From: Myxococcota bacterium
Lineage (GTDB): Bacteria > Myxococcota_A > Polyangia > Polyangiales > Houyiibacteriaceae
NCBI GenBank assembly: GCA_039030295.1
Contig: JBCCEK010000002.1
Location: 3,978 to 67,977, forward strand
DNA length: 64,000 bases
Direction: 5' to 3'
Shown here in pieces: positions 1 to 36,518 of this stretch (positions are counted from its first letter, which is position 1; every line of letters starts with the position of its first letter). A program made the translations under genes and the position numbers. Under the pieces are notes generated by a model. The model had not been told where the DNA came from, ran no database searches, and saw only the letters and a program-made list of their open reading frames with translations.

Positions 1-1
1 C

Positions 2-55
2 CCCGCCGCCAAGAAGATCATTCGCAAGGGCCGACTGCGCGACGGCCCTACCTAG
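2..55 (+). CDS. 3' end of an unidentified upstream CDS (truncated by the window edge)
   Basis: The frame starting at nt 2 reads ...PAAKKIIRKGRLRDGPT, then TAG at 53-55. Third positions are mostly G/C. Too short to name. Confidence 0.3.
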   Translation, partial: PAAKKIIRKGRLRDGPT

Positions 56-84
56 CGCCCTACTGACAACCAGAAGGTGGTGAC

Positions 85-3000
85 ATGTCCCTGCTGAGTT
101 TCGGACGGAAGAAAAGAGAGCTCGACAAAGATCAGAAGGGCAACTTCAAGTACCCGGGGACGAGGGCGGCACTCGACGGGAACAGCGCCGTCATCATGTG
201 TGAGCGAGAGTCGAGCGACGCCGCGGGCGCGTACCCGATTACGCCCTCCACGCAGATGGGTGAGTATTGGGCCGAAGCGGCGGCCGCAGGCCACGTCAAC
301 GTGTCGGGGCGACCACTGATCTTCATCGAGCCTGAGGGCGAGCATGCCGCAGCGGCGGTAACCGCCGGTTTGTCGATGACCGGGCTTCGCTCCGCGAACT
401 TCTCATCCGGGCAAGGCATCGCGTACATGCACGAGTCCTTGTACGCAGCCGTCGGAAAGCGCCTGACGTACGTATTGAACATCGGCGCTCGCGCGATGAC
501 CAAAGCGACGCTCAACGTCCACGCCGGGCACGATGACTACCATTGCGTGGACGATTCAGGCTTCTTCCAGATGTTCGCGAAGAACGCGCAAGCCGCCGCC
601 GACCTGAACATCATCAGTCACCGGGTGGCGGAACTCGCGTTGACGCCAGGGATCATCGCGCAAGACGGCTTTTTGACGACTCATCTGATCGAATCGTTGA
701 TGGTTCCGGAGCGCGCGCTAATCGCCGAGTTCCTTGGAAGGCCCGACGACATCATCCCGACCCCGACTCCAGCGCAGCGAATCATCTACGGAGACAAGAG
801 ACGGCGCATTCCACTGCTGTGGGACGTGGACAATCCAATCATGGCGGGCCTGGTCCAGAACCAGGACGCTTACATGCAGAGTGTCGCCGCACAGCGGCCT
901 TTCTTCTTTGACCACGTCGAGGGTCTTGCCAACGATGCGTTCGATGAATTTCATGCGCTGACCGGACGACGCTACTCGCGGGTGATGACGTATCGGACCG
1001 AGGACGCGGAGTACTTGCTTCTCGGCCAGGGAAGCATGATTCCGTCCGCCGAAGCGGTGGCCGACTACCTTCGCGAGACCCGCGGTCTGAAGGTTGGCGT
1101 CGTGGACATGCTCATGTTTCGTCCCTTCCCGAGCGACCTGGTTGGGCGGCTTCTTCGCGGAAGGAAGGGAGTCGCGATACTCGAGCGCCTCGATCAACCG
1201 CTCGCTGCCGACTTGCCCCTCGTTCGAGAGGTCCGAGCCGTTCTCGGGAAGTGCGTCGAGAACGGAAAGAACCCAAAGCACCCCCCGTACCCGAGCCTCG
1301 AGACGTACACGTCGCTGAGCGACGTTCCACCGATCTACTCGGGGTCCTACGGGATGGGGAGCCGTGACCTCCAACCCGAAGGCCTCATCGGGGCGGTCGA
1401 GAACATGCTCGACGACGGGCCACAGAAGAAGCTGTTCTACCTCTCGATCGACTTTGTCGTCGACAAGGCCATCACGCCAAAGCAGGAGATGTACCTGCAG
1501 ACGATCGACGAGTCGTATCCGACCGTGAAGGAGCTCGCGATCAAGGGCTCCGAGAACCCAAACCTGATGCCCGCCGAGAGCATCACGGTGCGATTTCACT
1601 CGGTCGGGGGCTGGGGCGCTATCACGACAGGCAAGAACCTCGCGATGACGCTCTTCGAGCTTCTTGGGTACCACATCAAGGCGAACCCCAAGTACGGGTC
1701 GGAGAAGAAGGGACAGCCAACCACCTACTACCTGTCGGCCGCACCCGAGCCCATCAAGATCAACTGCGAGTACTTCTACGTCGATGTTGTGCTGTCGCCA
1801 GACCCGAACGTGTTCGGGCATACCAACCCGCTGGCGGGCCTCAAGGACGAGGGAGTCTTCATCATTCAGGGCGACCAGCCGTCACCCGAAGATGTTTGGA
1901 AGACGATCCCTCCCATGTATCAGAAGATCATCATCGACAAAAAGATCAAGGTCTTCTACATCGACGGCTTCGGGATCGCCCGCGACGAGGCCACCGATCC
2001 GGACCTCCAGCTCCGCATGCAAGGGATTGCTTTTCAGGGCGCGTTCTTCGCGGCATCCCCGGTCATGCGACAAGCAGGCTTGAGCGACGAGCAGTTGCTC
2101 GCCGCCATCCACGATCAGATCCGCGAGAAGTTCGGTTCGAAAGGCAAGCGGGTCGTCGACGACAACATTCGGGTCGTGAAGCGCGGCTTCGACGAGATCA
2201 GGGAGGTCGTTCCGGGCCCCATTACCGACAATGCGACGAAAACCTCGCACGCTGCCCCGAAGCTTCCCGTGATGGTCAAGTCGCTCCCTCAAAGCAAAGC
2301 CCCCATGACCGACATTCATCGGTTCTGGGAACAGACCGGGAGCTTCTACGCTCGCGGGATGGGCAGCGACAACCTCACCGACCCTTTCATCGGGCTCGGT
2401 GTGATGCCGCCCTCGTCCGCGCTCTTCCGGGACATGACGGGCATCCGTTTCGAGCACCCCGAATGGATTCCAGAGAACTGTACGGCTTGCGGCGATTGCT
2501 ACACGGTGTGTCCGGACACCGCCATCCCCGGGCTCGTCAACGAGGTGGGCCAGGTCTTCGACACCGTCGTCGACCGAGTCCGGAAGAACGGGCACGGAGC
2601 GGAGGTAGCCCACCTTCCCAAGGCGTCGCGCGTCGCCGAGCGCAACCTGCGCGCGCTCTTCAGTGAGACCGACGAGAGCGCGTCGGTCGATGCTCTCCTC
2701 GATCAGGCGATCGCCCAGACCGTTCGCGAGAGCGAGCTCCAAGGCGCCGACAAAGAACAGCTCGAGAAAGAGTTCGGCTACTTCAAAGAGGAGCTCAACG
2801 GTTTCAAGTTTGCCCTGACACGGCCGCACTACACCGTGCCCGAGAAGGACCAACCCGGCAGCGGCGGGTTGTTGTCGATCACGGTCAACCCCTACACCTG
2901 CAAGGGCTGCATGGAGTGCGTCCAGGTCTGCAGCGACGACGCCCTGCGACCCATCCGCCAAACTCCGGAGTCGGTCCAGCTCTTGCGAGACAACTGGGAC

Positions 3001-5046
3001 CTCTGGAGTGATCTTCCATCGAGCCCTTCGAAGTACATCCAGGTGGACGACCTGGATCAAGGGATTGGGACGCTCGAGTCGATCTTGCTCGACAAGTCGA
3101 ACTACCTCCAGTTCACAAGCGGCGATGGCGCATGCCTCGGTTGTTCAGAGAAGACGACGATGCACCTCTTCGTCGCCACGGTCGAGGCGCTGATTCGGCC
3201 GCGCATCACGAAACACCTCGTCCACCTCACCGAGGTCATCGCGCGGCTGCGGAAGCACATTCAGGTACAGCTCGCTGGCGATATCGACGTTGGGGACCCG
3301 GAAGCGATGGCCAAGATCGTAGACGACATCGGAGACCGGGACATCACGTTGGCGGCGATCGCCGAACGGATGGAAAGCGCGCATGGCGGCCAGCCGATCG
3401 ATCAAGACTGGTTGCGACGGATGACGCAGCTCGTCGCCCAACTCGAAGACCTGAAGTGGAAGTACACCGACGGAACCACAGGGCGCGGACGGACGTCACT
3501 CGGGATGATCAATGCTACCGGATGCACGTCGGTTTGGGGAAGCACCTACCCGTTCAACCCCTACCCGTTTCCCTGGGCAAACCACCTCTTTCAGGACACG
3601 CCGTCGATGGCCATGGGCGTGTTCGAAGGACACATGGCGAAGATGGCCGAAGGCTTCAAGGCCTTACGGATCGCCGAGCTCGAACTGAACGGCAAGTACG
3701 ACCCTGCCGAGCACGACGAGTTCTTCACCTACTTCGACTGGCGGCAGTTCACCGATGACGAGTGGGAGCTCTGCCCGCCGGTCGTGGCGGTCGGAGGGGA
3801 CGGAGCGATGTACGACATCGGCTTTCAGAACCTGTCGAGGCTCATGGCGTCCGGCAAACCGATCAAGTGCCTCGTCGTCGACACTCAGGTCTACTCCAAC
3901 ACGGGCGGGCAAGCGTGTACGTCCGGGTTCATCGGCCAGGTGTCCGACATGGCTCAGTTCGGCAAAGCCATCCAAGGCAAGCAGGAGCCGCGCAAGGAGA
4001 TCGGCCTGATCGGGATGGCGCACAGAAACACCTACGTGATGCAGAGCACCATCGCCCACTCGAGTCACATGATCGAAGGGTTCATCGAGGGGCTCAAGGC
4101 TCGCCGGCCGGCCCTCTTCAACATCTACAGCAACTGCCAGCCCGAGCATGGAATCGGTGACGACATGAGCGCCGCGCAATCGAAGCTCGCGGTCGAGTCT
4201 CGGGCCTATCCACTCTTTCGCTACAACCCAGACGCGGGCACGACGCCTCAGGAGTGTTTCGACCTCGAGGGCAACCCGGCGCCCGACGAGGACTGGCCTA
4301 CGTACACGATCAAGTACGAGGAAGGAGGCGCCGAGAAATCAATGGAGCTTCCCCTCACGTTCGCCGACTTTGCGGTCACGGAGATTCGCTTTCGAAAGCA
4401 GTTCCGAGTCGCGCCACCGGATACCTGGAACGAAAACATGGTCCCACTCGTCGACTTCCTCACGATGGACGAAGACGAACGCGAGGGGTCATTTCCTTAT
4501 GTTTGGATGGTGGACAACGACGGGCAGCTGACGCGACTGCTGGCCGCACAGCCCATCGTCGAGTCTTGCCAGGACCGCATCGACTTCTGGCGCATGCTGA
4601 AGGCGCTCGCCGGAGACGACCAACCGAGCGCCGAGTCGTTGGTCGAGCAGGCACGCCAAGATGTCGTCGGCAAGATCATGTCCGGGCTCATGCAAATGGC
4701 TGGTGGCCCAGGAGAAGGCCTGGCAGCGTTGGCGGGCTCGGGCGCCCTTGTCGATGGCGTTGGCGGGGAGCCGGCAGGGTCGTCGGCGAGCGGCGACTAC
4801 CTCGCCCCTTGGATCGACACGCCGGACTGCACGTCATGCGACGAGTGCGTGGAGATCAATCCCAAGATCTTCGAATACAACGCCGAAAAGAAGGCGGTCA
4901 TCAAGAACCCGGACGGGGGCCCCTACAAAGACATCGTCAAAGCGGCAGAGCGCTGTACCGCGAGGGTCATCCACCCGGGCTTGCCCAGGAACCAGAACGA
5001 GAAGGGCATCGACAAGTGGATCAAGCGGGCCGAAAAGTACAACTGA
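85..5046 (+). CDS. Pyruvate:ferredoxin (flavodoxin) oxidoreductase, single-polypeptide NifJ/PFOR type, unusually long (1653 aa), with an extra C-terminal ferredoxin-like module
   Basis: PFOR N-terminus GAYPITPSTQMGEYW. Internal 2x[4Fe-4S] domain motifs CTACGDCYTVCP and CKGCMECVQVCS. TPP-domain motifs GDGACLGCSEKT and GGDGAMYDIGFQNL. AVESRAYPLFRYNP near the canonical C-terminus. Additional CTSCDECVEINP...ERCTARVIHP module at the end. AAGGTGG lies upstream of the ATG. Confidence 0.9.
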   Translation: MSLLSFGRKKRELDKDQKGNFKYPGTRAALDGNSAVIMCERESSDAAGAYPITPSTQMGEYWAEAAAAGHVNVSGRPLIFIEPEGEHAAAAVTAGLSMTGLRSANFSSGQGIAYMHESLYAAVGKRLTYVLNIGARAMTKATLNVHAGHDDYHCVDDSGFFQMFAKNAQAAADLNIISHRVAELALTPGIIAQDGFLTTHLIESLMVPERALIAEFLGRPDDIIPTPTPAQRIIYGDKRRRIPLLWDVDNPIMAGLVQNQDAYMQSVAAQRPFFFDHVEGLANDAFDEFHALTGRRYSRVMTYRTEDAEYLLLGQGSMIPSAEAVADYLRETRGLKVGVVDMLMFRPFPSDLVGRLLRGRKGVAILERLDQPLAADLPLVREVRAVLGKCVENGKNPKHPPYPSLETYTSLSDVPPIYSGSYGMGSRDLQPEGLIGAVENMLDDGPQKKLFYLSIDFVVDKAITPKQEMYLQTIDESYPTVKELAIKGSENPNLMPAESITVRFHSVGGWGAITTGKNLAMTLFELLGYHIKANPKYGSEKKGQPTTYYLSAAPEPIKINCEYFYVDVVLSPDPNVFGHTNPLAGLKDEGVFIIQGDQPSPEDVWKTIPPMYQKIIIDKKIKVFYIDGFGIARDEATDPDLQLRMQGIAFQGAFFAASPVMRQAGLSDEQLLAAIHDQIREKFGSKGKRVVDDNIRVVKRGFDEIREVVPGPITDNATKTSHAAPKLPVMVKSLPQSKAPMTDIHRFWEQTGSFYARGMGSDNLTDPFIGLGVMPPSSALFRDMTGIRFEHPEWIPENCTACGDCYTVCPDTAIPGLVNEVGQVFDTVVDRVRKNGHGAEVAHLPKASRVAERNLRALFSETDESASVDALLDQAIAQTVRESELQGADKEQLEKEFGYFKEELNGFKFALTRPHYTVPEKDQPGSGGLLSITVNPYTCKGCMECVQVCSDDALRPIRQTPESVQLLRDNWDLWSDLPSSPSKYIQVDDLDQGIGTLESILLDKSNYLQFTSGDGACLGCSEKTTMHLFVATVEALIRPRITKHLVHLTEVIARLRKHIQVQLAGDIDVGDPEAMAKIVDDIGDRDITLAAIAERMESAHGGQPIDQDWLRRMTQLVAQLEDLKWKYTDGTTGRGRTSLGMINATGCTSVWGSTYPFNPYPFPWANHLFQDTPSMAMGVFEGHMAKMAEGFKALRIAELELNGKYDPAEHDEFFTYFDWRQFTDDEWELCPPVVAVGGDGAMYDIGFQNLSRLMASGKPIKCLVVDTQVYSNTGGQACTSGFIGQVSDMAQFGKAIQGKQEPRKEIGLIGMAHRNTYVMQSTIAHSSHMIEGFIEGLKARRPALFNIYSNCQPEHGIGDDMSAAQSKLAVESRAYPLFRYNPDAGTTPQECFDLEGNPAPDEDWPTYTIKYEEGGAEKSMELPLTFADFAVTEIRFRKQFRVAPPDTWNENMVPLVDFLTMDEDEREGSFPYVWMVDNDGQLTRLLAAQPIVESCQDRIDFWRMLKALAGDDQPSAESLVEQARQDVVGKIMSGLMQMAGGPGEGLAALAGSGALVDGVGGEPAGSSASGDYLAPWIDTPDCTSCDECVEINPKIFEYNAEKKAVIKNPDGGPYKDIVKAAERCTARVIHPGLPRNQNEKGIDKWIKRAEKYN

Positions 5047-5068
5047 GTCGCGACGCCACGGCGGACGG

Positions 5069-6406
5069 ATGAGACTGCTCGGCCTCAAGACGTTCCGGCA
5101 CGGGGTCCATCCGCCGGAGTCCAAGGACGAAACCAGCGGGTTGGCCATTCGGCAGTTTCCGTTCGCCCCGTTGCTCGTCGTCCCGCTGGTGCAGCACATG
5201 GGCGCCCCGTCAATCCCGGTCGTCGAAGAGGGGCAAGAGGTTGCCCGCGGCCAGCGGATCGCGCGGCCAGACGGCTTCATGTCGGTCGCCATGCACGCAC
5301 CTGCGTCTGGCACTGTGCGCCGGATCGCGCTCGCGCCAAGCATCACGGGTCGCATGGTCCCAGCGGTGTACCTCGAGCCGCTTCCAGGCTCGACCCAGGA
5401 GGTCGAAGATGGCACGCCTTGCGCGCTCGACACCGCGACACCGGAAGAGATCCTCGCTGCGATTCAGGAAGCCGGCATCGTAGGCCTCGGGGGCGCCGCG
5501 TTTCCCACTCACGCCAAACTGACGATCCCGGAAGGAAAGTTCGTCGACACTCTGATCATCAACGGGGTCGAATGCGAGCCATTCCTGACGACCGACCACC
5601 GGGTGATGCTCGAGCAGACCGAAGAGATCTTCATGGGGATCCGCTATCTCCTCAAGCTCACCAAGGCCGAGCGCGTGATCATTGGAGTCGAGGCCAACAA
5701 GCCCGATGCGGCGGCGCGACTCCAAAACGAGTTCCCGAGCGATATCGAAGGGTCGGTCGAGGTACTCCGCGTGAAGTACCCCCAAGGGGCGGAGAAAGTG
5801 CTCTTCTCCGCGCTCCTCGGTCGCGAAGTCCCTTCTGGCAAGCTCCCCCTCGACATCCACGCCCTGTGCTGCAACGTCGCCACGACCGCAGAGATCGGGC
5901 GACTTCTGCCACGCGGGCGGGGCATCCAAGAACGCGTCATCACGGTGACGGGGCCCGCCGTGAAGCGCAAGGGCAACTACCGGATCCCGATCGGCACCCC
6001 GCTGCGATTCGTTCTCGAGCACGTGGGCGTCGAGGACGACGTCAACCGGGTTTTCCTAGGCGGGCCGATGATGGGCGGCGCCGCGTCAAGCCTCGACATC
6101 TCGATCACCAAGGGGACGTCCGGCGTGACGGCCTTCACGCACGGCGCCGCCGCCCGTACCCATAGCCGGGTCTACCCCTGCATTCGCTGTGGCTACTGCG
6201 TCGACGCCTGCCCGATCTTCTTGAACCCCTCCGCACTTGGCAGGCTGGCTGCCAAGGACGAGCTGAACGCGATGGTCGAGGAGCAGAACCTCATGGACTG
6301 CTTCGAGTGCGGGTGCTGCTCGTTTGTATGCCCTTCGCACATCCCGCTCGTTCAGCAGTTCCGCGCAGCGAAAACCTCCGTCCGGAAAGCGCGGGCGGCC
6401 TCGTGA
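5069..6406 (+). CDS. rnfC: Rnf electron-transport complex subunit C
   Basis: 445 aa from the internal ATG (MRLLGLKTFRHGVHPPE) of ORF 4661..6406. GLGGAAFPTH motif. Two ferredoxin motifs, CIRCGYCVDACP and CFECGCCSFVCP. Lies 22 nt after the PFOR stop. Confidence 0.9.
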   Translation: MRLLGLKTFRHGVHPPESKDETSGLAIRQFPFAPLLVVPLVQHMGAPSIPVVEEGQEVARGQRIARPDGFMSVAMHAPASGTVRRIALAPSITGRMVPAVYLEPLPGSTQEVEDGTPCALDTATPEEILAAIQEAGIVGLGGAAFPTHAKLTIPEGKFVDTLIINGVECEPFLTTDHRVMLEQTEEIFMGIRYLLKLTKAERVIIGVEANKPDAAARLQNEFPSDIEGSVEVLRVKYPQGAEKVLFSALLGREVPSGKLPLDIHALCCNVATTAEIGRLLPRGRGIQERVITVTGPAVKRKGNYRIPIGTPLRFVLEHVGVEDDVNRVFLGGPMMGGAASSLDISITKGTSGVTAFTHGAAARTHSRVYPCIRCGYCVDACPIFLNPSALGRLAAKDELNAMVEEQNLMDCFECGCCSFVCPSHIPLVQQFRAAKTSVRKARAAS

Positions 6407-7431
6407 CGAACGCCGGGAAGACTCTCGAAATCCGGACGTCGCCACACATCTTGAGCGGCTACAGCGTCGACACGATCATGTTCAACGTTGTCCTCGCCCT
6501 GCTCCCGGTCGTCGCCTTCAGTGTCTTCGCGTTCGGGTTGCCGGCACTGCTCACCATCACGGTCGCGGTGGTTTCGTGCGTGCTCACCGAGGACCTTCTT
6601 TGCCGCCTGCGCGGCGAGCCCACCACAGTGGGCGACTGGTCGGTCACGATAACGGGCTTCCTTTATGGTCTCACCCTTCCCCCGGCGCTCCCTTTGTGGA
6701 TGGTGGCGATGGGCGGGGTGATCTGCGTCGCCATGGGGAAGGCCATGTTTGGCGGGCTCGGGTTCAACACCTTTAACCCGGCGCTCATCGGCCGGGCCGT
6801 TCTTCAAGCGGCCTTCCCTGTCTCCATGACGACTTGGATCCCGGGCTTCATGCCCGACCGTTTCACATCGTTGCCCGCATCGACACTCACGTTTCCGTTT
6901 GCGCAGCCCGCCGTCGACGCAGTCACCAGCGCAACGCCGCTCGCGCTTTGGAAGTTCAGCCACGAGAGCACGCCAACACTCGACCTGGCCCTCGGGACGA
7001 TCACGGGGTCGGCGGGAGAGACCTCGGGCTTGCTGATCGTCGTGGGAGGCCTCTACCTGATCGCCCGGAACATGATGAACTGGCGCATCCCGACGGCGAT
7101 CATCGGCGCAGTCGTGCTCCTCAGCGGCGCGCTCCACATGGTCGACCCGACCCAATATGCCTCGCCAGGTTTCATGGTGTTCTCGGGCGGGCTCCTCCTC
7201 GGCGCCATGTTCATGGCGACCGACCCGGTGGGATCACCCATGACCTCGCTCGGCTGCTACCTGTACGGCGCGCTCATCGGCGCCGTCACCGTGGTGATAC
7301 GTACCTGGGGAGGCCTCCCCGAGGGCGTCATGTACGCGATTCTGCTCGGCAACGCGCTCACCCCGCACATCGACCAGTGGACCCGACCGACCGTCTACGG
7401 CAGTCGGAAGGGCAAGGAGGTCGCGACGTGA
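6403..7431 (+). CDS. rnfD: Rnf complex subunit D (polytopic membrane, FMN-binding)
   Basis: GTG start overlaps the rnfC stop (GTGA). RTSPHILSG N-terminus, many TM segments, TSATPL flavinylation-type motif. Confidence 0.88.
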   Translation: MTNAGKTLEIRTSPHILSGYSVDTIMFNVVLALLPVVAFSVFAFGLPALLTITVAVVSCVLTEDLLCRLRGEPTTVGDWSVTITGFLYGLTLPPALPLWMVAMGGVICVAMGKAMFGGLGFNTFNPALIGRAVLQAAFPVSMTTWIPGFMPDRFTSLPASTLTFPFAQPAVDAVTSATPLALWKFSHESTPTLDLALGTITGSAGETSGLLIVVGGLYLIARNMMNWRIPTAIIGAVVLLSGALHMVDPTQYASPGFMVFSGGLLLGAMFMATDPVGSPMTSLGCYLYGALIGAVTVVIRTWGGLPEGVMYAILLGNALTPHIDQWTRPTVYGSRKGKEVAT

Positions 7432-8123
7432 GTGGGTCCGAGCTCGCACAACAACCGCCTTCGCCGAGTCCGTGGCCGATGTACCGCGCGATGGTCGGGG
7501 TCGGCGTCGCCTGCGGGCTCCTGATCGTGACCGTCTTCCAGGGGACGCTCCCGATCATCCAACGCAACAAAGCCGAAGCGCTTCAGAAAGCGATCTTTCG
7601 CGTGCTTCCAAAGGCGACGACGAGCGCGGCCTTCGGATTCGACCCCACGCGTGGATTCGTGTCCGACCCCGGTGACTCGCTGGGTATGCGTCGCGTGTAC
7701 GCGGGATACGACGACACAGGCGCCCTGGTGGGCGTGGCACTCGAGGCCCAAGGGATGGGCTATCAGGACGTGATCGGTATCATCTACGGGTACTCGTTTG
7801 AAGAGCACGCGATCATCGGGATGGAGGTGCTCGAGAGCAAAGAGACGCCGGGGCTCGGTGACAAGATCGAGACCGATCCCGACTTCGTCGCCAACTTCAA
7901 CCGGCTGGACGTCTCGTTGGCCGATGACGGCACCGGGCTTGCCCATCCCATCGTCGCGGTCGCGCGAGGGACCAAGACTGAGCCTTGGCAGGTCGACAGC
8001 ATCACCGGTGCGACGATCTCTTCGGAGGCAATTGCGGCGATCCTCAACGGGAGCGCACAAACCTGGGTACCTCGGATCGAGGGCCATCTGGACGACCTCA
8101 AACGAGGCAACGACAACCGATGA
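7428..8123 (+). CDS. rnfG: Rnf complex subunit G (FMN-binding, single TM)
   Basis: GTG start overlaps the rnfD stop (GTGA). One N-terminal TM helix. Covalent-FMN motif DSITGATISS. Confidence 0.85.
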   Translation: MSGSELAQQPPSPSPWPMYRAMVGVGVACGLLIVTVFQGTLPIIQRNKAEALQKAIFRVLPKATTSAAFGFDPTRGFVSDPGDSLGMRRVYAGYDDTGALVGVALEAQGMGYQDVIGIIYGYSFEEHAIIGMEVLESKETPGLGDKIETDPDFVANFNRLDVSLADDGTGLAHPIVAVARGTKTEPWQVDSITGATISSEAIAAILNGSAQTWVPRIEGHLDDLKRGNDNR

Positions 8124-8770
8124 CCACGAGGACCGCAAGCGATGAGTTCTTGAAGGGACTGTGGAAGGAAAACCCGGTCTTCGTCCAAGTCCTCGGCATG
8201 TGCCCCGTCCTTGCCGTGTCCAACACTGCGATGAACGCGCTTGCCATGGGGCTCGCGACCGCGTTCGTCCTCGTGATGTCCAACGCGGTGGTGTCCTCCC
8301 TTCGTCACTTCATCCCGAAACAGGTTCGGATCGCCACTTACATTTTGGTCATCGCGACCTTCGTCACGGTCGTCGACTATGCGATCCAGGCGATCAGCCT
8401 CGAACTCTACCGCGCACTCGGCGCGTTCATTTCGCTGATCGTCGTCAACTGCCTGATCCTCGGTCGCGCCGAGGCTTTCGCCTCCAAGAACACCGTCGGA
8501 CGTTCGGTGATGGACGGCCTTGGCATGGGGGTCGGGTTCGTGTTCGCGCTCCTCTTCCTCGGTGGCGTACGAGAGATCCTCGGTATGGGCTCCCTTTTTG
8601 GAGTGCGGCTGTTCCCGGACTCGTTCCAAGAATGGGTCGTGATGATCCTGCCGAGCGGCGGCTTCTTCAGCCTTGCCGGTTGGCTGGTGCTCTTCAACTG
8701 GCTCGAAAAGCGGAAGGCCGACAAGGCCGAGAGAGCCCGCGTCTCCGGGCTCCGCGGGGAGGTGGCGTGA
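8120..8770 (+). CDS. rnfE: Rnf complex subunit E
   Basis: ATGA overlap with rnfG. NPVFVQVLGMCPVLAV and VVNCLILGRAEAFASKN motifs of the RnfE/NqrD family. Confidence 0.88.
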   Translation: MTTRTASDEFLKGLWKENPVFVQVLGMCPVLAVSNTAMNALAMGLATAFVLVMSNAVVSSLRHFIPKQVRIATYILVIATFVTVVDYAIQAISLELYRALGAFISLIVVNCLILGRAEAFASKNTVGRSVMDGLGMGVGFVFALLFLGGVREILGMGSLFGVRLFPDSFQEWVVMILPSGGFFSLAGWLVLFNWLEKRKADKAERARVSGLRGEVA

Positions 8771-9351
8771 TGGCCGACGAGTCTCTTTGGACGATCTTCA
8801 TCAACGCGTCGCTCGTCAACAACTTCGTGTTGGCGTACTTCCTCGGCATCTGCCCGTTCCTCGGCGTCTCAGCGAAGCTCGCGACCGCGAGCCGAATGGG
8901 TGGCGCGGTCATGTTCGTGATGCTCGTCGCTTCGGTGTGCGCGTACGGGATCAACGCGTTGCTCGTGGCCATCGACGCCCCCTACTTGAGGCTCATCTCG
9001 TTCATCGCCGTCATCGCATCGACCGTCCAGCTCGTCGAGATGGTCATCAAGAGATTCAGCCCGGCACTCTTTCGAGCGCTCGGGATCTTCTTGCCGTTGA
9101 TCACGACCAACTGCGCGATCCTCGGGTTGGCGCTGTTTCAGACGAACAAGGGCTACGGCTTCGTGCAGTGCATCGTCTACGCGCTTGGCGCGGGCGTCGG
9201 GTTCACCTTGGCCCTTGTCTTGATGGCCGCCGCTCGGGAGAAGCTCGAGCTGGCGAACGTGCCGGACATCATGAAGGGGACCGCGCTCGCGTTGATGATA
9301 GCCGGATTCCTCTCGGTGACTTTCATGGGGTTCGGCGGACTTGGAGGATGA
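8770..9351 (+). CDS. rnfA: Rnf complex subunit A
   Basis: TGATG junction with rnfE. NNFVLAYFLGICPFLGVS and PLITTNCAILG motifs of the RnfA/NqrE family. Confidence 0.88.
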   Translation: MADESLWTIFINASLVNNFVLAYFLGICPFLGVSAKLATASRMGGAVMFVMLVASVCAYGINALLVAIDAPYLRLISFIAVIASTVQLVEMVIKRFSPALFRALGIFLPLITTNCAILGLALFQTNKGYGFVQCIVYALGAGVGFTLALVLMAAAREKLELANVPDIMKGTALALMIAGFLSVTFMGFGGLGG

Positions 9352-9355
9352 CGGG

Positions 9356-9571
9356 ATGCTCTATCACTACCTGATCGGAGTCGGTTCTGTGGTGTTGCTG
9401 TTCGCCTTGTGGATCCGCATCCAACGAGCGTGGAAGCGGTCGTTCTCGGAGGTCGGAAGCGACCCAGACGCGCTTGCGGGGCGCAGCGGCTGCCGCGGAT
9501 GCATCGACCCCTCAACCTGTAACCGGACGCCCAATAGCGGAGCCTGCATGGCTCGGGAGGAGAAGTCATGA
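9356..9571 (+). CDS. Small single-pass membrane protein with a four-Cys tail (C-x2-C-x5-C-x8-C); NqrM-like/unknown
   Basis: 71 aa, MLYHYLIGVGSVVLLFALWIRI (TM) ...SGCRGCIDPSTCNRTPNSGAC. GGAGGA sits 7 nt upstream of the ATG, 4 nt after the rnfA stop. Its stop overlaps the FNR start (ATGA). Confidence 0.6.
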   Translation: MLYHYLIGVGSVVLLFALWIRIQRAWKRSFSEVGSDPDALAGRSGCRGCIDPSTCNRTPNSGACMAREEKS

Positions 9572-10443
9572 CGTCTGCAGTGACCCATCTCGACGAGTAC
9601 GAGACCAAGCCGCGGTTCGAAGCGGTGGTCGTCTCGAGCCAACGAATCACGCCCGAAGCGTCCGACGCGGAGGTTCGAGAGCTCACTCTCGACATCCAGC
9701 AGCCCGATTTCGAGTTCGAGCTCGGGCAAAGCGTCGGCGTTCTTGCCCCGGGAGCGAAGGAGTTCGGCCAAGAGCATCACTTTCGCTTGTACAGCGTCGC
9801 CGACTTGCCCGAACGCGGGGAGCATGGGCTCCCCAGAATCCGAATCGCGGTACGACGTGCAAGCTACGTCGACAAGTACAGTGGCGAGGAGTACCCCGGC
9901 GTCGCGTCGAACTACCTGTGCGACCGGGTTCCTGGAGACCGAATCACCATGTCCGGCCCCTACGGGCTGGCTTTCGAGGTCCCCGAAGAGATGGACGCAA
10001 ACCTCATCCTGATCGGGACCGGCACCGGGATCGCCCCCTTTCGCGCTTTCGTGAAACACATCTACAAAGATGTCCCGAGCTGGAAAGGCACGGTCACCCT
10101 CCTCTACGGCGCGCGCAGCGGGCTCGAGCTTCTCTACATGAACGACGCCAAGGACGACTTTGCGCAGTACTACGACGAGGAAACGTTCCACGCGTTCAAG
10201 GCGTTGAGTCCCCGACCGGCCTGGGAGGCGCCGATCGATTGGGAGGGCGCCCTATCCGAACGCGGAGAGGAGCTCTGGAAGCTCCTCGGTCTCCCGAACA
10301 CCTACGTCTACGTGGCGGGGCTTGCCAAACTGCGCGGTGAGCTCGACGACGCGTTTGGTGAGGTCGCAGGATCAGAGCGCAAGTGGGCTCGCCGAAAAGC
10401 CGAACTCATCGCCGGTCAACGTTGGGTCGAGTTGCTCTACTGA
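9568..10443 (+). CDS. Ferredoxin-NADP(+) reductase, plant-type FNR family
   Basis: RLYSVAD (RxYS FAD motif), GTGTGIAPFR (NADP-binding motif), C-terminal ...VELLY with a terminal aromatic residue as in plant-type FNRs. Confidence 0.85.
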   Translation: MTSAVTHLDEYETKPRFEAVVVSSQRITPEASDAEVRELTLDIQQPDFEFELGQSVGVLAPGAKEFGQEHHFRLYSVADLPERGEHGLPRIRIAVRRASYVDKYSGEEYPGVASNYLCDRVPGDRITMSGPYGLAFEVPEEMDANLILIGTGTGIAPFRAFVKHIYKDVPSWKGTVTLLYGARSGLELLYMNDAKDDFAQYYDEETFHAFKALSPRPAWEAPIDWEGALSERGEELWKLLGLPNTYVYVAGLAKLRGELDDAFGEVAGSERKWARRKAELIAGQRWVELLY

Positions 10444-10573
10444 ACACCTAGAAGAGCGTCGCCCGCGGAGGCAGCGATGACCTACTGGCGCGCACAGAAT
10501 GCGCGAGTCCGGCGCGTGATATGCGCCACGTACACCGTTCCGTCGGGCCCCCTTCTGTCGTAGGCTGTCGACC

Positions 10574-12145
10574 ATGCAGACCGTTCCGAAGGCACTTCTC
10601 AAGACGCTCTACAACCATGCAAGCCTCCGCAACGACGAGGCCGGCGTTCAGTTCTCGGTCAAGAACAGGCTCGCTCCCGCAACGCTCAAGCGGGTCGACC
10701 GCGTCATTCTCGATGGGGAGGCGGTCGCGCCAGATCGAATTCGGGTGCGGATCGACGAAGGGGAGACCCTTCCGTTGACGAAGCTCGGCAATGGCCAAGA
10801 AGCGATCGACTTCCCGCTCGGCACGCTTCTCACGTTCAGCCTGAACGTGAGCAAGCTCGACCAGGGCGATCACACCCTCGAGCTTTCGTTCGAGACCGAC
10901 CCTTTTGGGGAGCTCGAGCTCGACGTCACCGACGCCGTCGACGCCCCGCGCGACCCCACAGCGATCCCGAGAGACGAAGCCAACGACTACGGCGAGGAGA
11001 TCATTCGCACGCGTCAGGAGTTCATCGAAGAGCGCACCGGAGTACGCCCGGAGCACATCGCGAAGTACGGTATCGACCCACACTCGACGGAGGGCAACAT
11101 CGAGCATTTCATCGGGACGGCGCAGCTCCCGGTTGGAATCGCGGGGCCGCTTCTCGTCCATGGAGAACACGCGGATGGCGAGTTCTACGTTCCGCTCGCC
11201 ACGTCCGAAGGCACGTTGGTCGCGTCCTACAACCGCGGCATGAAGGTCATCCACCGAAGTGGCGGCGTTCGCTGCTCAGTCGTCGGCGACAACATGCAGC
11301 GAGCGCCTGTGTTCGTATTCAGCAGCGCAACCGATGCTCGACACTTCGTCGACTGGATCGTCGAGAAGACTAGCGAACTCCAACGCGTGACGCACGAGTC
11401 CGACCCTTTCGTCGAACTCAAGCACGTCGACTACTACCTTTCAAACAGCTTCGCCTTCCTGCGGTTCAACTACACCACGGGAGACGCGGCCGGGATGAAC
11501 ATGGTCAGCAAAGCCACGTTCGCTGCCTGCAACTGGATCATGCAGAACTGCGACGCGATCGAGATCGTCCGGTTCTTCCTCGAGTCGAATTTCGCGACCG
11601 ACAAGAAGCACTCCACGATCAACACCATGCGCACTCGTGGGAAGCGCGTCACGGCGGAATGCGTGGTTGACCGCAACGCGCTCCGCGAGATCATGGGCGC
11701 CGACACAGAGATGCTGTACCAGCACTACAAGGTGGCGAATATCGGGTCGATGCTCTCGGGCACGAACAACAATGGACTGCACTCGGCCAACGCCATCACG
11801 GCAATGTTCATCGCGACAGGACAGGATGCCGCGAACGTCGCCGAGTCTTCGTCCGCGGTGCTGTACGCCGAACTGACCCCGGAGAAGAACCTATACATGT
11901 CGGTTACGCTGCCATCGCTGATCGTCGCGACGATGGGTGGCGGTACCGGGCTGCCAACGCAGCAAGAGAGTCTCGAGATCCTCGGTTGCGTGGGCAAGGG
12001 CAAGGTTCGAAAGCTCGCCGAGATCATCGCGGCCACCGTAATGGCCGGAGAGATCTCCCTGGCCGCAGCCATCTCCTCTCTCGACTGGGTCTCTTCGCAC
12101 GATCGCTACGGCCGGAACGACCCGACGAAAGCCGACAACTCGTAG
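10574..12145 (+). CDS. Hydroxymethylglutaryl-CoA reductase, class I catalytic domain, with an unknown ~135-aa N-terminal domain
   Basis: Class-I motifs TSEGTLVASYNRG, TGDAAGMNMVSKA, VATMGGGTGLPTQ, and a C-terminal SSHDRYGRN histidine region. The N-terminal 135 aa has no TM segment and no motif I recognise. Confidence 0.85.
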   Translation: MQTVPKALLKTLYNHASLRNDEAGVQFSVKNRLAPATLKRVDRVILDGEAVAPDRIRVRIDEGETLPLTKLGNGQEAIDFPLGTLLTFSLNVSKLDQGDHTLELSFETDPFGELELDVTDAVDAPRDPTAIPRDEANDYGEEIIRTRQEFIEERTGVRPEHIAKYGIDPHSTEGNIEHFIGTAQLPVGIAGPLLVHGEHADGEFYVPLATSEGTLVASYNRGMKVIHRSGGVRCSVVGDNMQRAPVFVFSSATDARHFVDWIVEKTSELQRVTHESDPFVELKHVDYYLSNSFAFLRFNYTTGDAAGMNMVSKATFAACNWIMQNCDAIEIVRFFLESNFATDKKHSTINTMRTRGKRVTAECVVDRNALREIMGADTEMLYQHYKVANIGSMLSGTNNNGLHSANAITAMFIATGQDAANVAESSSAVLYAELTPEKNLYMSVTLPSLIVATMGGGTGLPTQQESLEILGCVGKGKVRKLAEIIAATVMAGEISLAAAISSLDWVSSHDRYGRNDPTKADNS

Positions 12146-12160
12146 CCTCAGGCCGAGAGT

Positions 12161-13066
12161 TCAGAGACTCGCACGCGCCCGGCGGAGGGTTTCAGCCGAG
12201 CGGGCCAATGCCTCTCGTTCAGACTCGTCCACCTCGGGCTCGAGGACCTCAACGGCGCCGTCCTTGCCGACGATCGTAGGAAGCGAGATGGCGAGATCCC
12301 GAATACCCATCGCTCCCTCTTGAACGCGACAAACCGTGAGAACGCGGCGCGTCCCGCGAAGCGCCCACCTGAGCAACGTGGACGTCACGACCCCAATGGC
12401 ATGATTGGTGGCGCCCTTTCTTGCGATGATCTCGTAGGCCGCCGTGCGCACTTCACGGGCAATCGCTGACTCATCCTCGGCGGTCCATCCAGGCCAACTT
12501 CGGACCGGGTTTCCGCCCACCCGAGCAAGAGACCACAGGACGACCTCGGAGTCCCCGTGCTCTCCGACCACCTGGGCGTGAATCGATCTCGCATCGACGT
12601 CCAATCGTCGTCCGAGTGCCTGCCTCAAGCGCGCGGTGTCGAGCATCGTCCCAGTACCGATCACTCTCTCGAGGGGTAGGCCGGAGGCTTCGGCGGCCAC
12701 CTGGGTCATCAAGTCGACGGGATTGGTGACCACGACGAGCATCCCGCGCAAGGATGCGAGCTGGCTGGCAATCGCACCGATGATCGCCGCGTTCGTTCGA
12801 AGGAGATCGAGGCGGCTGTCCGATGGACCCCCGCCTTTTCCGGCGGCAATGACAACCGCATCTGCATCTTGCATCTCCTCGATCGATGTCGCCTGAACGG
12901 TCGCCGAGGGATGAAACGCAGCGCCGTGACGGAGGTCCATCGCCTCTCCCTCCGCGAGCGCAGACCTAACGTCATGGAGCAGGAGTTCGGTGGCCACGCC
13001 GGCGTGCAGGATCGACGAAGCCACGCTCGCGCCGACCCAACCCATGCCGATGATCCCGATCTTCAT
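12161..13066 (-). CDS. L-2-hydroxyacid dehydrogenase of the LDH/MDH family (substrate unclear)
   Basis: MKIGIIGMGWVGAS Rossmann motif, VVTNPVD, SRLDLL, catalytic GEHGDS. The specificity-loop position is neither the LDH Gln nor the MDH Arg. Confidence 0.8.
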   Translation of the reverse strand: MKIGIIGMGWVGASVASSILHAGVATELLLHDVRSALAEGEAMDLRHGAAFHPSATVQATSIEEMQDADAVVIAAGKGGGPSDSRLDLLRTNAAIIGAIASQLASLRGMLVVVTNPVDLMTQVAAEASGLPLERVIGTGTMLDTARLRQALGRRLDVDARSIHAQVVGEHGDSEVVLWSLARVGGNPVRSWPGWTAEDESAIAREVRTAAYEIIARKGATNHAIGVVTSTLLRWALRGTRRVLTVCRVQEGAMGIRDLAISLPTIVGKDGAVEVLEPEVDESEREALARSAETLRRARASL

Positions 13067-13079
13067 GCGCCGCCGTCGC

Positions 13080-14942
13080 CTAGTACCGTTCGGGTGCGAG
13101 CTCCCAGACAGTCGGAGACCGCCAAAGGGCCGAGAGGGTCAATTCTCGCATGTGGCTGAACTCTCGAGGAAGCTTGTCGTAGAGTCGGTCAAAGAGCGAC
13201 TCTTGGTCGTAGAGTTCCTTCTTCCACTCCTCGCGGCCAACGCTCATGACCTCTTTGAACTGGTCGCGGGTGAAATCGAGGCCTCTCCAGTCGAGCTGCT
13301 CGTATTGTGGCATCCACCCGAGGGGGCTCTCGGTAGACCCTGCGCGGCCGCGCACGCGATCGACGATCCATCGAAGGACGCGCATGTTCTCCCCGAAGCC
13401 GGGCCACACGAACTTTCCGTTGTCGTCTTTGCGGAACCAGTTGATCAGGAAGATGCGAGGCGGCTTGGGTGTGCTGCGCCCAATCTCGAGCCAGTGGTTG
13501 AAGTAGTCCGCCATGTGGTACCCGCAGAAAGGCAACATGGCGAAGGGGTCGCGTCGAATCTTCCCGACCTCTCCGCCAGCCGCCGCCGTCTGCTCGGAGC
13601 CGATGGTCGCCGCCATGAACACGCCGTAGGCCCAGTTGAACGACTGAACGACGAGCGGCATGGTGCTCGCCCGACGGCCACCGAAAACGAACGCATGGAC
13701 CGGAACCCCAGCGGGGTCCTCCCAATCCGGGTCGATGACGGGGCACTGCGACGCTGGGGCCGTGAACCGGGCGTTGGGATGAGCGGCGGTCCGCCCGCTG
13801 TCCGGAGTCCAGTCGTCTCCCCGCCAATCGGTGAGCTTGGGCGGAGGTTCGTCGGTGAGCCCTTCCCACCACACGTCGCCGTCGGGCGTCAGAGCGCAGT
13901 TCGTAAAAATGCTATTGGCTTTACAAGACTCGAGTGCGTTCTTGTTGGACTTCTCAGAGGTACCCGGTGCCACACCGAAGAACCCGGCCTCCGGGTTGAT
14001 CGCCCGAAGCCGACCCCTGGCGTCTGGCTTGATCCAAGCGATGTCATCCCCAATCGTCGTGACCTTCCAGCCGTCCTCGGCAAAGGCCGTAGGGGGCACG
14101 AGCATCGCGAGGTTGGTTTTCCCGCATGCGCTCGGCAGCGCGGCTGCGATGTAGGTCTTCTCACCCTCCGGGCTTTCCACGCCGAGGATCAACATGTGCT
14201 CGGCAAGCCAACCTTCGTCCCGAGCCATCACCGAGGCGATTCGCAACGCGAAGCACTTCTTGCCAAGTAGCGCGTTGCCTCCGTATCCACTTCCGAACGA
14301 CCAGATCGCTCTCTCCTCCGGATAGTGGACGATGTACTTGTTCTCGTTGTTGCATGGCCACGAAACATCCTGCTGGCCTTCGCCGAGCGGCGCGCCCACG
14401 GAGTGTACGCATCGCACGAAGTTTGGCCCTCGGAGGTGTTGGTACGCTGCCTCGCCCATGCGCGTCATGATCTTCATGTTCACCGCAACATAGGCCGAGT
14501 CCGAAAGCTCGATCCCGATCTGTGAGATCTCAGAGCCGAGGGGTCCCATGCAAAATGGAATGACGTACAGCGTGCGGCCCGCCATGCATCCCTTGAAGAG
14601 TCCGGCGAGCGTGCTCTTCATCTCTTGGGGATCCATCCAGTTGTTCGTCGGCCCTGCGTCGTCCTTTCGCACGCTGCAAATGAACGTTCGGTCTTCCACG
14701 CGGGCCACATCGGCGGGATCGGAAAACGCCGCATAGGAGTTCGGGCGTTTGTCTTCGTTGAGCTTGACGAAGGTGCCTGCCTCGACGAGGCGATTGCAGA
14801 GCATTCCGTATTCTTCGTCTGAGCCGTTGCAGAAGTAGATGTCTGTCGGTTCGCAGAGTGTGGCAACCTCTCGAATGAAGCTGCGTGCCTCTTCGCTCTC
14901 GAGGCCGGATGGAAAGTCGATTGCGGTCGGGTCTAGGGTCAT
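13080..14942 (-). CDS. pckG: Phosphoenolpyruvate carboxykinase (GTP)
   Basis: [22 protein letters not shown] and [12 protein letters not shown] motifs typical of GTP-PEPCK. Start chosen at [10 protein letters not shown] (620 aa). The ORF is open upstream to 15038. The stop lies 13 nt from the LDH/MDH-like start. Confidence 0.88.
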
Positions 14943-15140
14943 GTCTGCCTCTCTCGAAGTTGCGTCCTTTGTACCCGGGATCTGATGCATGTCCACGCTC
15001 GACTCAACGCGGTTTCGAAGCGTCTCGGGCGATGTCACACGCTCGAAAAAAGACCGCCGGATCCGGCGCAGGCGATGCGGTGAATCGCGACAAACCGGCG
15101 CAAAAGCTGCATCGTCTCGGCCTAGGCGAGCGGCAGATGG

Positions 15141-31804: not shown

Positions 31805-31896
31805 GATCGCCTCCTCCTACGGGTGCTCCCTGCAGCCAGCGTGCCAACGGCGACGGGTACGCTTCTTGCTGCTGGCTGTTGAGGCAAAGCCGAACC

Positions 31897-33243
31897 ATGG
31901 CGATCAAGATTCGAAAAGGCCTCGATATCCCCTTGGCCGGAAGACCTGCGCAGCAAATCGAGCCGGCCAACCCGGTGGGTTGGGTTGGGGTCGTCGCCGC
32001 GGACTACCGGGGACTGCAAGCGAAGGTCGCGGTCGAGGTCGGCGAACATGTGCAACTGGGCCAGCCCTTGCTCTGCGACCGGTTCCGTCCCGAGATCGTG
32101 TTTACCGCCCCGGGTGCGGGCGAGGTGGTCGCCGTCCATCGCGGTTCACGCCGGTCGCTGCAGACGGTCGTCGTGCGTCTCGAAGGGAAGTCCGAGCGAA
32201 CTTTCGCCTCGTACGACCGTGGCGGGCTGATGCAGATCGATCGCGAAGCCGTTCGTCGACAAATGCTCGCGTCAGGACTGTGGCCGTCCCTTCGTACGCG
32301 ACCCTTCAGCACGATCCCCGACCCGATGAGTGTCCCGCATTCGATCTTCGTGACGGCGATCGATACCAACCCACTTGCCGCCGACCCCGAAGTGGTGATC
32401 CGAGAGCGTTCGGACGCGTTCTCGGACGGCGTATCCGTGATGACGCGGTTGACCGATGGACCGGTCTACGTGTGCCACCGAGATGGCGCCAACCTTGGCC
32501 TGCCGAAACACGACTCCGTCAAGGCCGTGGGTTTCGCTGGGCCGCACCCCGCCGGCTTGCCCGGCACGCACGTACACTACCTCGACCCTGTCGACGAGAC
32601 CAAGGTCGTCTGGCATCTCCAGTACCAGGACGTCATTGCGATCGGCGCCTTGTTCACCACAGGCCGCATCGACACCGAGCGTGTCGTGTCCCTCGGCGGG
32701 CCCGTCGTTCGAAACCCACGATTGGTACGAACGAGGTTGGGCGCGAGCACCGAGGATCTCTTGGCCGGAGAGCTCGAACCCGTCGAATGTCGCGTGATCT
32801 CCGGTTCGATCCTGGGGGGCAGGCGGGCGGCCGGGCATGCCAGGTACCTCGGTCCACGCGACCTCCAGGTCACCGTTCTGCACGAGGACCGTTCGCGTCA
32901 CTTTCTGGATTGGCTCGCCCCGGGTTTCGGCAAGTACTCCGCTATCCAAGCGTTTGCCTCGAGCGTGACAAGACGGCGGGAGTTCGCCCTCACGACATCG
33001 CAGCACGGAAGCCCGAGAGCGATGGTGCCGATCGGAAACTTCGAGAAGGTCATGCCCCTCGACATTCTTCCCGCGCCGCTGCTCAAAGCACTCATCGTTG
33101 GCGACACCGAGTCTGCGCGTGCACTCGGTTGCCTCGAGCTCGACGAAGAAGACCTGGCCCTGTGCTCGTTCGTCTGCTGCAGCAAGTACGAATACGGCCC
33201 CTATCTTCGACAGACCCTCAGCGCGATTGCGGAGGCTCGGTGA
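31897..33243 (+). CDS. nqrA: Na+-translocating NADH:quinone oxidoreductase subunit A
   Basis: Start at [17 protein letters not shown] (canonical NqrA N-terminus). First gene of the nqrABCDEF order. Confidence 0.88.
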
Positions 33244-34457: not shown

Positions 34458-35241
34458 AACCGAAACGCCAACCGGGGAGCGTGCCACCACGACCCTGCTC
34501 GTCGCCTTGGGCGTGAGTCTGGTCTGCTCGTCCCTCGTCGCGTCCGCGGCGGTGGTCCTCAAGCCGCGACAGGAAGCGAACCGGCTCCGCGAGGTCCAGC
34601 GGAACATCCTCGAGGTTTCCGGTCTCGAAGGCACCGTACGCCTCGACGAGGAGGGTCTCGAGCGCGTCGAGGTGCGAGTTATCGACTTGCAAGAAGGCAC
34701 CTACGTCGAGGTCGACCCGACGGGTTTCGACCCCGCGGAAGCCGCCAAGGATCCCGAAACGAGCGTCGCGGTCCCACCCGAGATCGACCGAGCTCGTATC
34801 GGTCGGAGGGCCAAGTGGGGCGTTGTCTACCTGGTTCGCTCGGAGAGCGACGAGCTCGAGCGGATCATCCTACCCGTGTCGGGCCAGGGGCTCTGGTCGA
34901 CGATGTACGGTTTCATCGCCCTCGAGATGGACGGCAACACCATCGCTGCAGTCACATTCTACGAGCACGGAGAGACCCCGGGCCTCGGGGATCAGATCGC
35001 AGACCCTTCGTGGCGCTCTCAATGGGAGGGTAAGCAGGTCTTCGACCAAGAAGGCCGAGTCAGGTTCGAGGTCGCCAAGGGGGCCGTCTCCGATAGCGAC
35101 CCGCTGTCGACCCATCGCGTCGACGGGATCTCGGGGGCCACGCTCACCGGGAACGGCGTGACCCATCTGATTCGGTACTGGCTCGGTGACCACGGGTACG
35201 GGCCTTACCTCGATTCCTTTCAGGGAAAGGGCACCCCATGA
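34450..35241 (+). CDS. nqrC: Na+-NQR subunit C
   Basis: Single N-terminal TM. FMN-attachment motif [13 protein letters not shown]. 8-nt overlap with nqrB. Confidence 0.88.
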
Positions 35242-36508: not shown

Positions 36509-36518
36509 GAGCCGCGCG

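Follow-up and report, generated by a model that had tools for sequence, protein, structure and literature searches.

A nine-gene operon joining the rnf genes to a long PFOR-family enzyme and a plastidic-type ferredoxin-NAD(P)+ reductase in Myxococcota and other bacteria

Gene content of the operon

We analyzed a stretch of 64,000 nucleotides from a Myxococcota bacterium (GenBank assembly GCA_039030295.1, contig JBCCEK010000002.1, positions 3,978 to 67,977 of the forward strand), hereafter called the window. The region at 85–10443 of the window comprises eight genes of a nine-gene operon with the order rnfB, por, rnfC, rnfD, rnfG, rnfE, rnfA, orf71 and fnr. The operon is predicted to encode a complete six-subunit Rnf ferredoxin:NAD+ oxidoreductase, a putative ion pump, together with a long enzyme of the pyruvate:ferredoxin oxidoreductase (PFOR) family, a small Cys-rich membrane protein (orf71) and a ferredoxin-NAD(P)+ reductase (FNR). 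The features are as follows (positions refer to the window unless stated otherwise).

2–55, + strand: 3' end of rnfB, comprising its final 17 codons and the stop; the complete gene, coding for 288 aa, lies at 629–1495 of contig L001 (see below)
85–5046, + strand: por, long-form homodimer-type PFOR-family 2-oxoacid:ferredoxin oxidoreductase, 1653 aa
4813–4974, + strand: C-terminal single-cluster ferredoxin module of PFOR, aa 1577–1630 (PF13370, Fer4_13)
5069–6406, + strand: rnfC (TIGR01945, 481 bits, cut-off 246; Pfam domains RnfC_N, Complex1_51K, SLBB and Fer4)
6403–7431, + strand: rnfD (TIGR01946, 309.7 bits, cut-off 207)
7428–8123, + strand: rnfG (Pfam FMN_bind, 49.2 bits, cut-off 22)
8120–8770, + strand: rnfE (TIGR01948, 247.4 bits, cut-off 213.4; Cys in GMCPVLAV and VNCLILG)
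8770–9351, + strand: rnfA (TIGR01943, 236.3 bits, cut-off 229.3; Cys in GICPFLGV and TTNCAILG)
9356–9571, + strand: orf71, 71 aa, one membrane helix and a Cys-rich cytoplasmic tail (GCRGCx5C)
9568–10443, + strand: fnr, plastidic-type ferredoxin-NAD(P)+ reductase, 291 aa, soluble

Gene order and strand are as the first-pass annotation of the window had given them (PFOR, rnfC-D-G-E-A, a 71-aa open reading frame (ORF), FNR). The same holds for the junctions, which from PFOR onward measure 22, −4 (GTGA), −4 (GTGA), −4 (ATGA), −1 (TGATG), +4 and −4 (ATGA) nt. All nine genes are joined by overlaps or by gaps of at most 29 nt. The start of rnfA was placed at the ATG at 8770, with an in-frame GTG at 8767 as a possible alternative, and orf71 has a strong ribosome-binding site (GGAGGA) 7 nt upstream. 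Scans for promoters and terminators in the window (1–12300) and in L001 (1–1700) returned sites that are no commoner than in shuffled sequence.

Cofactor-related features can be seen in several Rnf subunits. RnfC has an NADH/FMN module (Complex1_51K) and two 4Fe-4S motifs, CIRCGYCVDACP and CFECGCCSFVCP, unlike NqrA. The translation of rnfD contains the flavinylation-type motif VDAVTSATPL and that of rnfG the motif VDSITGATISS, each with a threonine. RnfG scores 84.6 bits against TIGR01947, under the cut-off of 102; its place between rnfD and rnfE is kept in all the loci compared below. Judging by their motifs, the Cys pairs in RnfE and RnfA match those that hold the intramembrane [2Fe-2S] of the RNF/NQR core, a center that belongs to the described RNF/NQR cofactor set (PMC12174285). 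The assignment of the 85–10443 cluster to Na+-NQR was also considered and rejected, as Rnf models give the subunits higher scores than Nqr models do, and RnfB is present.

The presence of RnfB had been disputed. The first-pass annotation saw an Rnf without this subunit, in which either the ferredoxin domain of PFOR or the 71-aa Cys-rich protein would act as the ferredoxin-facing entry subunit. Within 85–10443 its premise is literally true: a six-frame scan found no ORF with RnfB-type motifs there, and in all 64 kb motifs of the form CxxCxxCxxxC[P] are confined to PFOR and RnfC. However, this appearance arises because the left window edge cuts rnfB. We obtained the upstream sequence by an exact look-up of the PFOR protein, which retrieved an 8-kb contig of another assembly (L001); its positions 1441–8054 align with window positions 1–6614 with 3 mismatches in 6614 nt (99.95% identity). 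On L001, the gene of which the window holds only the part up to nt 55 codes for a full 288-aa RnfB, which has a membrane helix at its N-terminus and contains a CGACGFPGCRPF...C motif besides several Cys motifs of the ferredoxin type. This protein scores 88.1 bits against TIGR01944 (rnfB; cut-off 68.7), and its precomputed Pfam domains are PF04060 (FeS, the N-terminal Cys4 domain) and Fer4. The rnfB stop lies 29 nt from the PFOR start. The first-pass annotation had itself pointed to the truncated gene as the place where an rnfB would contradict its model, and that is where a bona fide rnfB was found. In addition, the tail of orf71 has 3–4 Cys in ~25 residues and lacks a ferredoxin fold. The RnfB-less model is thus refuted, and the feature that had made the finding striking is not real. 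When a subunit seems to be absent beside a window edge, the flanking sequence must be checked.

The PFOR-family enzyme differs in size from its characterized relatives. Its Pfam domains are POR_N, PFOR_II, POR, Fer4, TPP_enzyme_C and Fer4_13, which cover domains I, II and III, the ferredoxin domain V and the TPP domain VI; the translation also shows the GDG...NTGGQ and Cys cluster motifs. Compared with the closest solved structures, those of the Moorella (6cin) and Desulfovibrio (1b0p) enzymes, it has ~480 extra residues, most of which either separate the two cluster motifs of the ferredoxin domain or form a C-terminal extension. The additional single-cluster ferredoxin module reported at the C-terminus is indeed present (Fer4_13, 29.4 bits; cut-off 24.5). 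Structural matches of the module are ferredoxins of Desulfovibrio (1dax, 1f2g), and its four Cys (CTxCDEC...RCTARVIHPG) are invariant in 118 out of 118 long-form homologs. The module is predicted to be tethered to PFOR by a flexible Gly/Ala-rich linker.

A separate ORF may be related to these extra residues. In a Myxococcota locus (L010, 7539–9116) and four other loci, a 525-aa ORF without a Pfam match is found directly upstream of rnfB. Its residues 155–467 share 30% identity with the C-terminal half of the PFOR (window 3616–4626), so that it looks like a free-standing copy of the PFOR-specific extension.

Conservation across genomes

Relatives of the long PFOR number thousands in databases, where they go by the name ‘2-oxoacid:acceptor oxidoreductase family protein’, and the long form occurs in at least 585 species genomes (one genome per species). 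Almost all of the top 120 relatives are ~1620–1680 aa long and 71–81% identical; the named ones nearest the top are mostly from Polyangiales or other Myxococcota. For the comparison of gene neighborhoods we used the best 80 loci from a scan of one genome per species. The full colinear PFOR-rnfC-D-G-E-A-FNR core is present in 65 of them. The 15 incomplete loci are accounted for by contig ends or N gaps, except for one (L049) considered below. Another apparent exception to the gene order, L011, was rejected, as it reflects scaffold gaps of N.

The RnfB-less model came with the proposal to compare the synteny of long PFORs with that of rnf operons devoid of rnfB. Here, too, the outcome goes against the model: rnfB adjoins the cluster in 63 of the 65 complete loci, and in the remaining two the cluster is cut by contig ends. 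The position of rnfB defines two types of loci. Directly upstream of PFOR, it is found in 33 loci from Myxococcota, Woeseiaceae and other Gammaproteobacteria, Planctomycetota, Acidobacteriota and Calditrichota. Directly downstream of FNR, it is found in 30 loci, mostly from Bacteroidota (among them the cultured Algoriphagus, Cecembia, Flagellimonas and Hyunsoonleella), plus Methylotuvimicrobium. The carriers are mostly from lineages described as aerobic or facultative. At the other end of the window operon, the gene after FNR differs even among close relatives. Since the downstream neighbor changes in this way, the unit ends at FNR.

Loci with rnfB at the far end often show one more gene. In L063 (7577–7942) and 25 other Bacteroidota-type loci, an ORF of ~121 aa without a Pfam match is located directly upstream of PFOR, on the same strand and ~100 nt away. 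This ORF may belong to the operon as an additional, lineage-specific gene.

The small membrane protein and the FNR

The gap between rnfA and FNR is occupied by a small protein in nearly all loci. Twelve close homologs of orf71 were found, and a profile search of 1.84 billion representatives extended the family to 344 clusters, all of short proteins. The family consensus consists of a membrane helix followed by W..VQ.AWRR.FP....D.D.LAGR.GC.GC.C...C, in which W19, Q23 and D38 never vary and C46, C49 and C55 hardly do. Of 71 loci, 59 have a family member between rnfA and FNR; most of the remaining ones encode there a different short peptide, which again has a membrane helix and a Cys-rich tail. 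AlphaFold2, run on orf71 with an alignment, gave a confident helix for residues 2–30 and left the Cys tail unmodelled. No credible Pfam or NCBIfam match was obtained for orf71, 51 of its relatives or eight of the alternative small peptides; the matches of small peptides to RseC_MucC (E = 0.12) and FeoB_associated (E = 0.2–0.9) were dismissed as noise.

The eight alternative peptides (L016, L072, L076, L077, L078, L081, L083 and L086) are 45–78 aa long and come from Woeseiaceae and Thermoanaerobaculia. Each combines a single membrane helix with a Cys-rich tail, for example ...RRRLSCDAADNDCGETQCPDGC or ...GGCCGGGECAGSC. Across the small peptides found between rnfA and FNR, position and architecture are thus kept, while the sequences look unrelated.

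In design, orf71 bears a weak resemblance to NqrM (DUF539, PF04400). Both are proteins of 60–80 aa with one N-terminal membrane helix and a cytoplasmic tail bearing a C-x-C-x3-C type motif, and for both the gene stands at the end of a pump operon. The differences are that orf71 lacks the GSCGG motif, has a stretch of ~20 additional conserved residues (QxAWRRxFP...DxDxLAGR) that separates the helix from the Cys motif, and goes with Rnf instead of Nqr. We compared the orf71 family with an NqrM profile that contained only retrieved real proteins, all of them with PF04400. The hhalign probability was 89.7% (score 33.9). When all columns were shuffled, the mean score was 10.8 and the real score was reached in 0 of 100 cases; when only the tail was shuffled, the mean rose to 22.4 and the real score was reached once in 100. 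It follows from these controls that the helix carries most of the score and that the Cys tail adds a modest but real signal.

Four observations count against a kinship with NqrM, or against a general need for such a protein. Roughly two-thirds of the hhalign score is contributed by the membrane helix, and orf71 and NqrM differ in how the first Cys is spaced. Neither orf71 nor 51 family members matched PF04400, even at E ≤ 1. Finally, in two loci from Calditrichota, rnfA and FNR are too close together to accommodate a small ORF. A relationship to NqrM by descent is possible. NqrM itself seems to be required for the insertion of the intramembrane [2Fe-2S] into Na+-NQR (PMC12174285). By analogy, our best guess is that orf71 is a candidate Fe-S maturation factor that would help to build the RnfA/RnfE center and would not be an electron-entry subunit. 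If this is true, orf71 would be the first protein put forward as a maturation factor for the intramembrane Fe-S center of Rnf, the counterpart described so far, NqrM, being one for Nqr only.

The FNR aligns end to end (residues ~10–287) with cyanobacterial and plant FNRs (8hfq, E = 5.9e-40; 1fnb, E = 2.6e-32). The C-terminal W-x-E-L-L-Y motif with its terminal Tyr (...WVELLY) is kept across loci, and a terminal aromatic residue is typical of plastidic FNRs. Orthology to PetH was not supported, the NF045929 score being 148.7 bits, under the cut-off of 600. In the loci compared, FNR is the next gene after the small ORF and the junction is often translationally coupled.

This arrangement raises the question of whether orf71 and FNR might be structural components of the pump that together make up a split, NqrF-like entry module for NAD(P)H at the nqrF position, with the orf71 helix anchoring FNR, through a small metal center, beside RnfA/RnfE. 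NqrF consists of a membrane helix, an FeS domain, an FAD domain and an NADH domain. The series rnfCDGEA, membrane-helix/Cys ORF and FNR-fold gene corresponds to nqrABCDE with nqrF after it; orf71 and FNR invariably lie side by side, often with translational coupling; and the idea parallels an evolutionary scenario proposed previously (PMC4014512). Yet a fusion of orf71 and FNR, looked for as a sign of a physical link, was found in none of 71 loci, and FNR matches plastidic FNR (140.7 bits) much more closely than it does NqrF (69.6 bits). A plant-type 2Fe-2S domain needs far more residues than the tail of orf71 offers. With RnfB encoded and an NADH/FMN module retained in RnfC, the complex does not require a further entry site, and the two Calditrichota loci have FNR without the small ORF. 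On balance, we consider a structural role of this kind unlikely and favor an NqrM-like role for orf71.

Proposed function, direction of electron flow and genomic setting

We propose, with a probability of roughly 0.7, that the operon encodes a ferredoxin hub that would link pyruvate/acetyl-CoA to NAD(H) and an ion gradient (through Rnf) and to NADP(H) (through FNR). According to its family membership, PFOR would interconvert pyruvate and CoA with acetyl-CoA and CO2. The fused ferredoxin domain, or free ferredoxin, would bring low-potential electrons to RnfB. Rnf would then deliver them to NAD+ at RnfC and, in doing so, transport Na+ or H+ through the membrane; in the alternative branch, FNR would reduce NADP+ with them. 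The module as a whole could in this way couple pyruvate/acetyl-CoA to both pyridine-nucleotide pools and to the ion gradient. The first-pass annotation had suggested that PFOR, Rnf and FNR may be one such pyruvate/ferredoxin/NAD(P)H/ion-gradient module, an idea that now has strong support from a gene order shared by at least six phyla.

Three points weigh against the hub. First, PFOR scores 397.5 bits against the TIGR02176 equivalog, far under the cut-off of 911; because of this, pyruvate, suggested by family membership, is the likely but not proven substrate. Second, we infer co-transcription of the operon from spacing and synteny only. Third, in L049 (a Gammaproteobacteria metagenome-assembled genome, 7977–12890) the long PFOR has no rnf neighbors; this is the sole locus long enough to judge in which rnf genes do not follow the long PFOR. 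Such a locus would fit the view that the genes are merely neighbors, with PFOR and FNR using free ferredoxin independently of Rnf and the clustering having no function. That view is very improbable, given that at least six phyla share the colinear order although the flanking genes differ, that rnfB switches the end of the cluster and yet stays attached to it, and that the junctions overlap or are very short.

Further indications of function come from the surroundings of the operon.

3–353 of L001, − strand: pyruvate,phosphate dikinase (PPDK), divergent, upstream of rnfB
10574–12145, + strand: 3-hydroxy-3-methylglutaryl-CoA reductase with the recently defined N-terminal domain PF25653, 130 nt after FNR
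12161–13066, − strand: lactate/malate dehydrogenase (LDH/MDH)-family dehydrogenase, just downstream of the operon
13080–15038, − strand: GTP-dependent phosphoenolpyruvate (PEP) carboxykinase (PEPCK), just downstream of the operon
31879–33243, + strand: nqrA
about 33240–34457, + strand: nqrB
about 34454–35241, + strand: nqrC
35238–35903, + strand: nqrD
about 35903–36508, + strand: nqrE
36519–37742, + strand: nqrF
37744–37920, + strand: NqrM-like ORF, 58 aa, with a membrane helix and a Cys motif, one nt after nqrF

According to these assignments, the operon sits among genes of the PEP/pyruvate/oxaloacetate node. The window also holds a complete nqrABCDEF operon (31879–37742, + strand), all six genes of which score above the NCBIfam cut-offs. 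The 58-aa ORF that follows it has no NCBIfam match but is recognized by the NqrM profile with 96.3% probability and by the orf71 family with 78.1%. Rnf and Nqr are thus encoded within 30 kb, and each pump is followed by a small membrane-helix/Cys protein.

As the first-pass annotation rightly stated, sequence does not reveal which way the electrons flow. Nevertheless, we lean toward the oxidative direction, because such a flow is documented for Prevotella, in which Rnf oxidizes ferredoxin and reduces NAD during fermentation (PMC10542786), because rnf2 of the Solemya velum symbiont has been read likewise, and because Nqr is present. In this direction, pyruvate would be oxidized at low oxygen with extra energy conservation: PFOR would reduce ferredoxin, Rnf would make NADH, and the Nqr encoded in the same window would pass the NADH electrons on.

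Flow in the opposite direction is somewhat unlikely, but it would suit aerobic carriers and the genes nearby. Rnf would spend the Na+/H+ gradient (for instance, that generated by Nqr) to drive electrons from NADH to ferredoxin, FNR would contribute electrons from NADPH, and PFOR would act as a pyruvate synthase (acetyl-CoA + CO2 to pyruvate). The pyruvate would feed PPDK/PEPCK for gluconeogenesis or anaplerotic CO2 uptake in aerobes. In line with this, some carriers are described as aerobes (among them a methanotroph, Woeseiaceae and Flavobacteriia), PPDK is divergently adjacent with PEPCK and the LDH/MDH-family gene nearby, and the same window contains a complete Nqr. A gene for a KorA-like 2-oxoacid:ferredoxin oxidoreductase is found near the cluster in 12 loci, and reverse-running Rnf is established in Azotobacter (PMC12174285). 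However, PPDK and PEPCK are reversible, and the sequence itself does not fix the direction. The order PFOR, ferredoxin, Rnf, NADH has been demonstrated in Bacteroidota (PMC10542786), and the PFOR to Rnf direction has been proposed for the S. velum symbiont (PMC4287430).

A more far-reaching version of the hub can be envisaged, in which all nine products form one membrane-bound assembly. The tethered ferredoxin would swing between PFOR, RnfB and FNR without free ferredoxin, and the NqrM-like peptide would anchor FNR beside RnfA/RnfE or help to build it there. We regard this as speculative and quite improbable. If it held, lineages that are largely aerobic would have a channelled pyruvate:NAD(P)+ oxidoreductase that doubles as an ion pump. 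The assembly would, moreover, represent a present-day counterpart of the proposed intermediate between Rnf and Na+-NQR, that is, an rnfCDGEA core with an acquired, membrane-tethered FNR-fold reductase at the nqrF position.

The hub resembles several known systems in part. A PFOR gene located between rnfB and rnfC is already known: it was noted once, in the S. velum symbiont, where PFOR lies between rnfB2 and rnfC2 and was read as the means by which pyruvate feeds Rnf (PMC4287430). This passing remark was all that we found in the literature on a PFOR-Rnf-FNR operon. For the long PFOR with its fused ferredoxin, the obligatory FNR, the small NqrM-like family and the conservation across phyla, we found no description, including in the 2025 RNF/NQR review. 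The operon order rnfBCDGEA has been described for Chlorobi/Bacteroidetes (PMC4014512). Operons of that type share with ours the six subunits and the identical order of rnfCDGEA. They differ in that here a small membrane-helix/Cys ORF and a plastidic-type FNR follow rnfA, PFOR is of the 1650-aa form with a fused ferredoxin, and the Bacteroidota clusters have rnfB at the far end. In the Prevotella/Bacteroides chain, ferredoxin reduced by pyruvate is re-oxidized by Rnf to yield NADH (PMC10542786), and the window genome likewise encodes a full Nqr. Unlike those anaerobes, the carriers studied here are mostly described as aerobic or facultative, and the papers found do not describe a PFOR inside the rnf operon of Prevotella/Bacteroides.

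Another comparison is offered by pyruvate:NADP+ oxidoreductase (PNO) of Euglena and Cryptosporidium, in which an attached redox partner couples the chemistry of PFOR to the reduction of NADP+. PFOR-ferredoxin together with FNR could give the same net reaction. PNO, however, is a single chain fused to a flavoprotein of the cytochrome-P450-reductase type, whereas here the fusion partner is a small ferredoxin and FNR is a separate protein of the plastidic type.

Discussions of Rnf usually center on anaerobes and nitrogen fixers, and PFOR is usually seen as an oxygen-sensitive enzyme of anaerobes. Here, Rnf, PFOR and FNR are brought together in one tightly conserved operon whose long PFOR occurs in at least 585 species genomes, many of the carriers (Bacteroidota, Woeseiaceae, methanotrophs, Myxococcota and Planctomycetota) being described as aerobic or facultative. 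If the proposed hub is real, these bacteria would possess a dedicated route for low-potential electrons from pyruvate/acetyl-CoA to NADH, NADPH and an ion gradient. This would bear on sediment and marine heterotrophs under oxygen limitation, or on anaplerotic CO2 uptake.

Several neighboring genes deserve mention. The 3-hydroxy-3-methylglutaryl-CoA reductase gene that follows FNR in the window is replaced by other genes in relatives and is therefore outside the cluster. RnfD and RnfG need a flavin transferase, ApbE, and in three loci an ApbE gene directly adjoins the cluster; examples of the ApbE and KorA-like neighbors are found in L031 (5811–7043) and L066 (19208–20890). The KorA-like neighbor corresponds to an alpha subunit, hinting at a second ferredoxin-dependent 2-oxoacid enzyme that would use the same hub.

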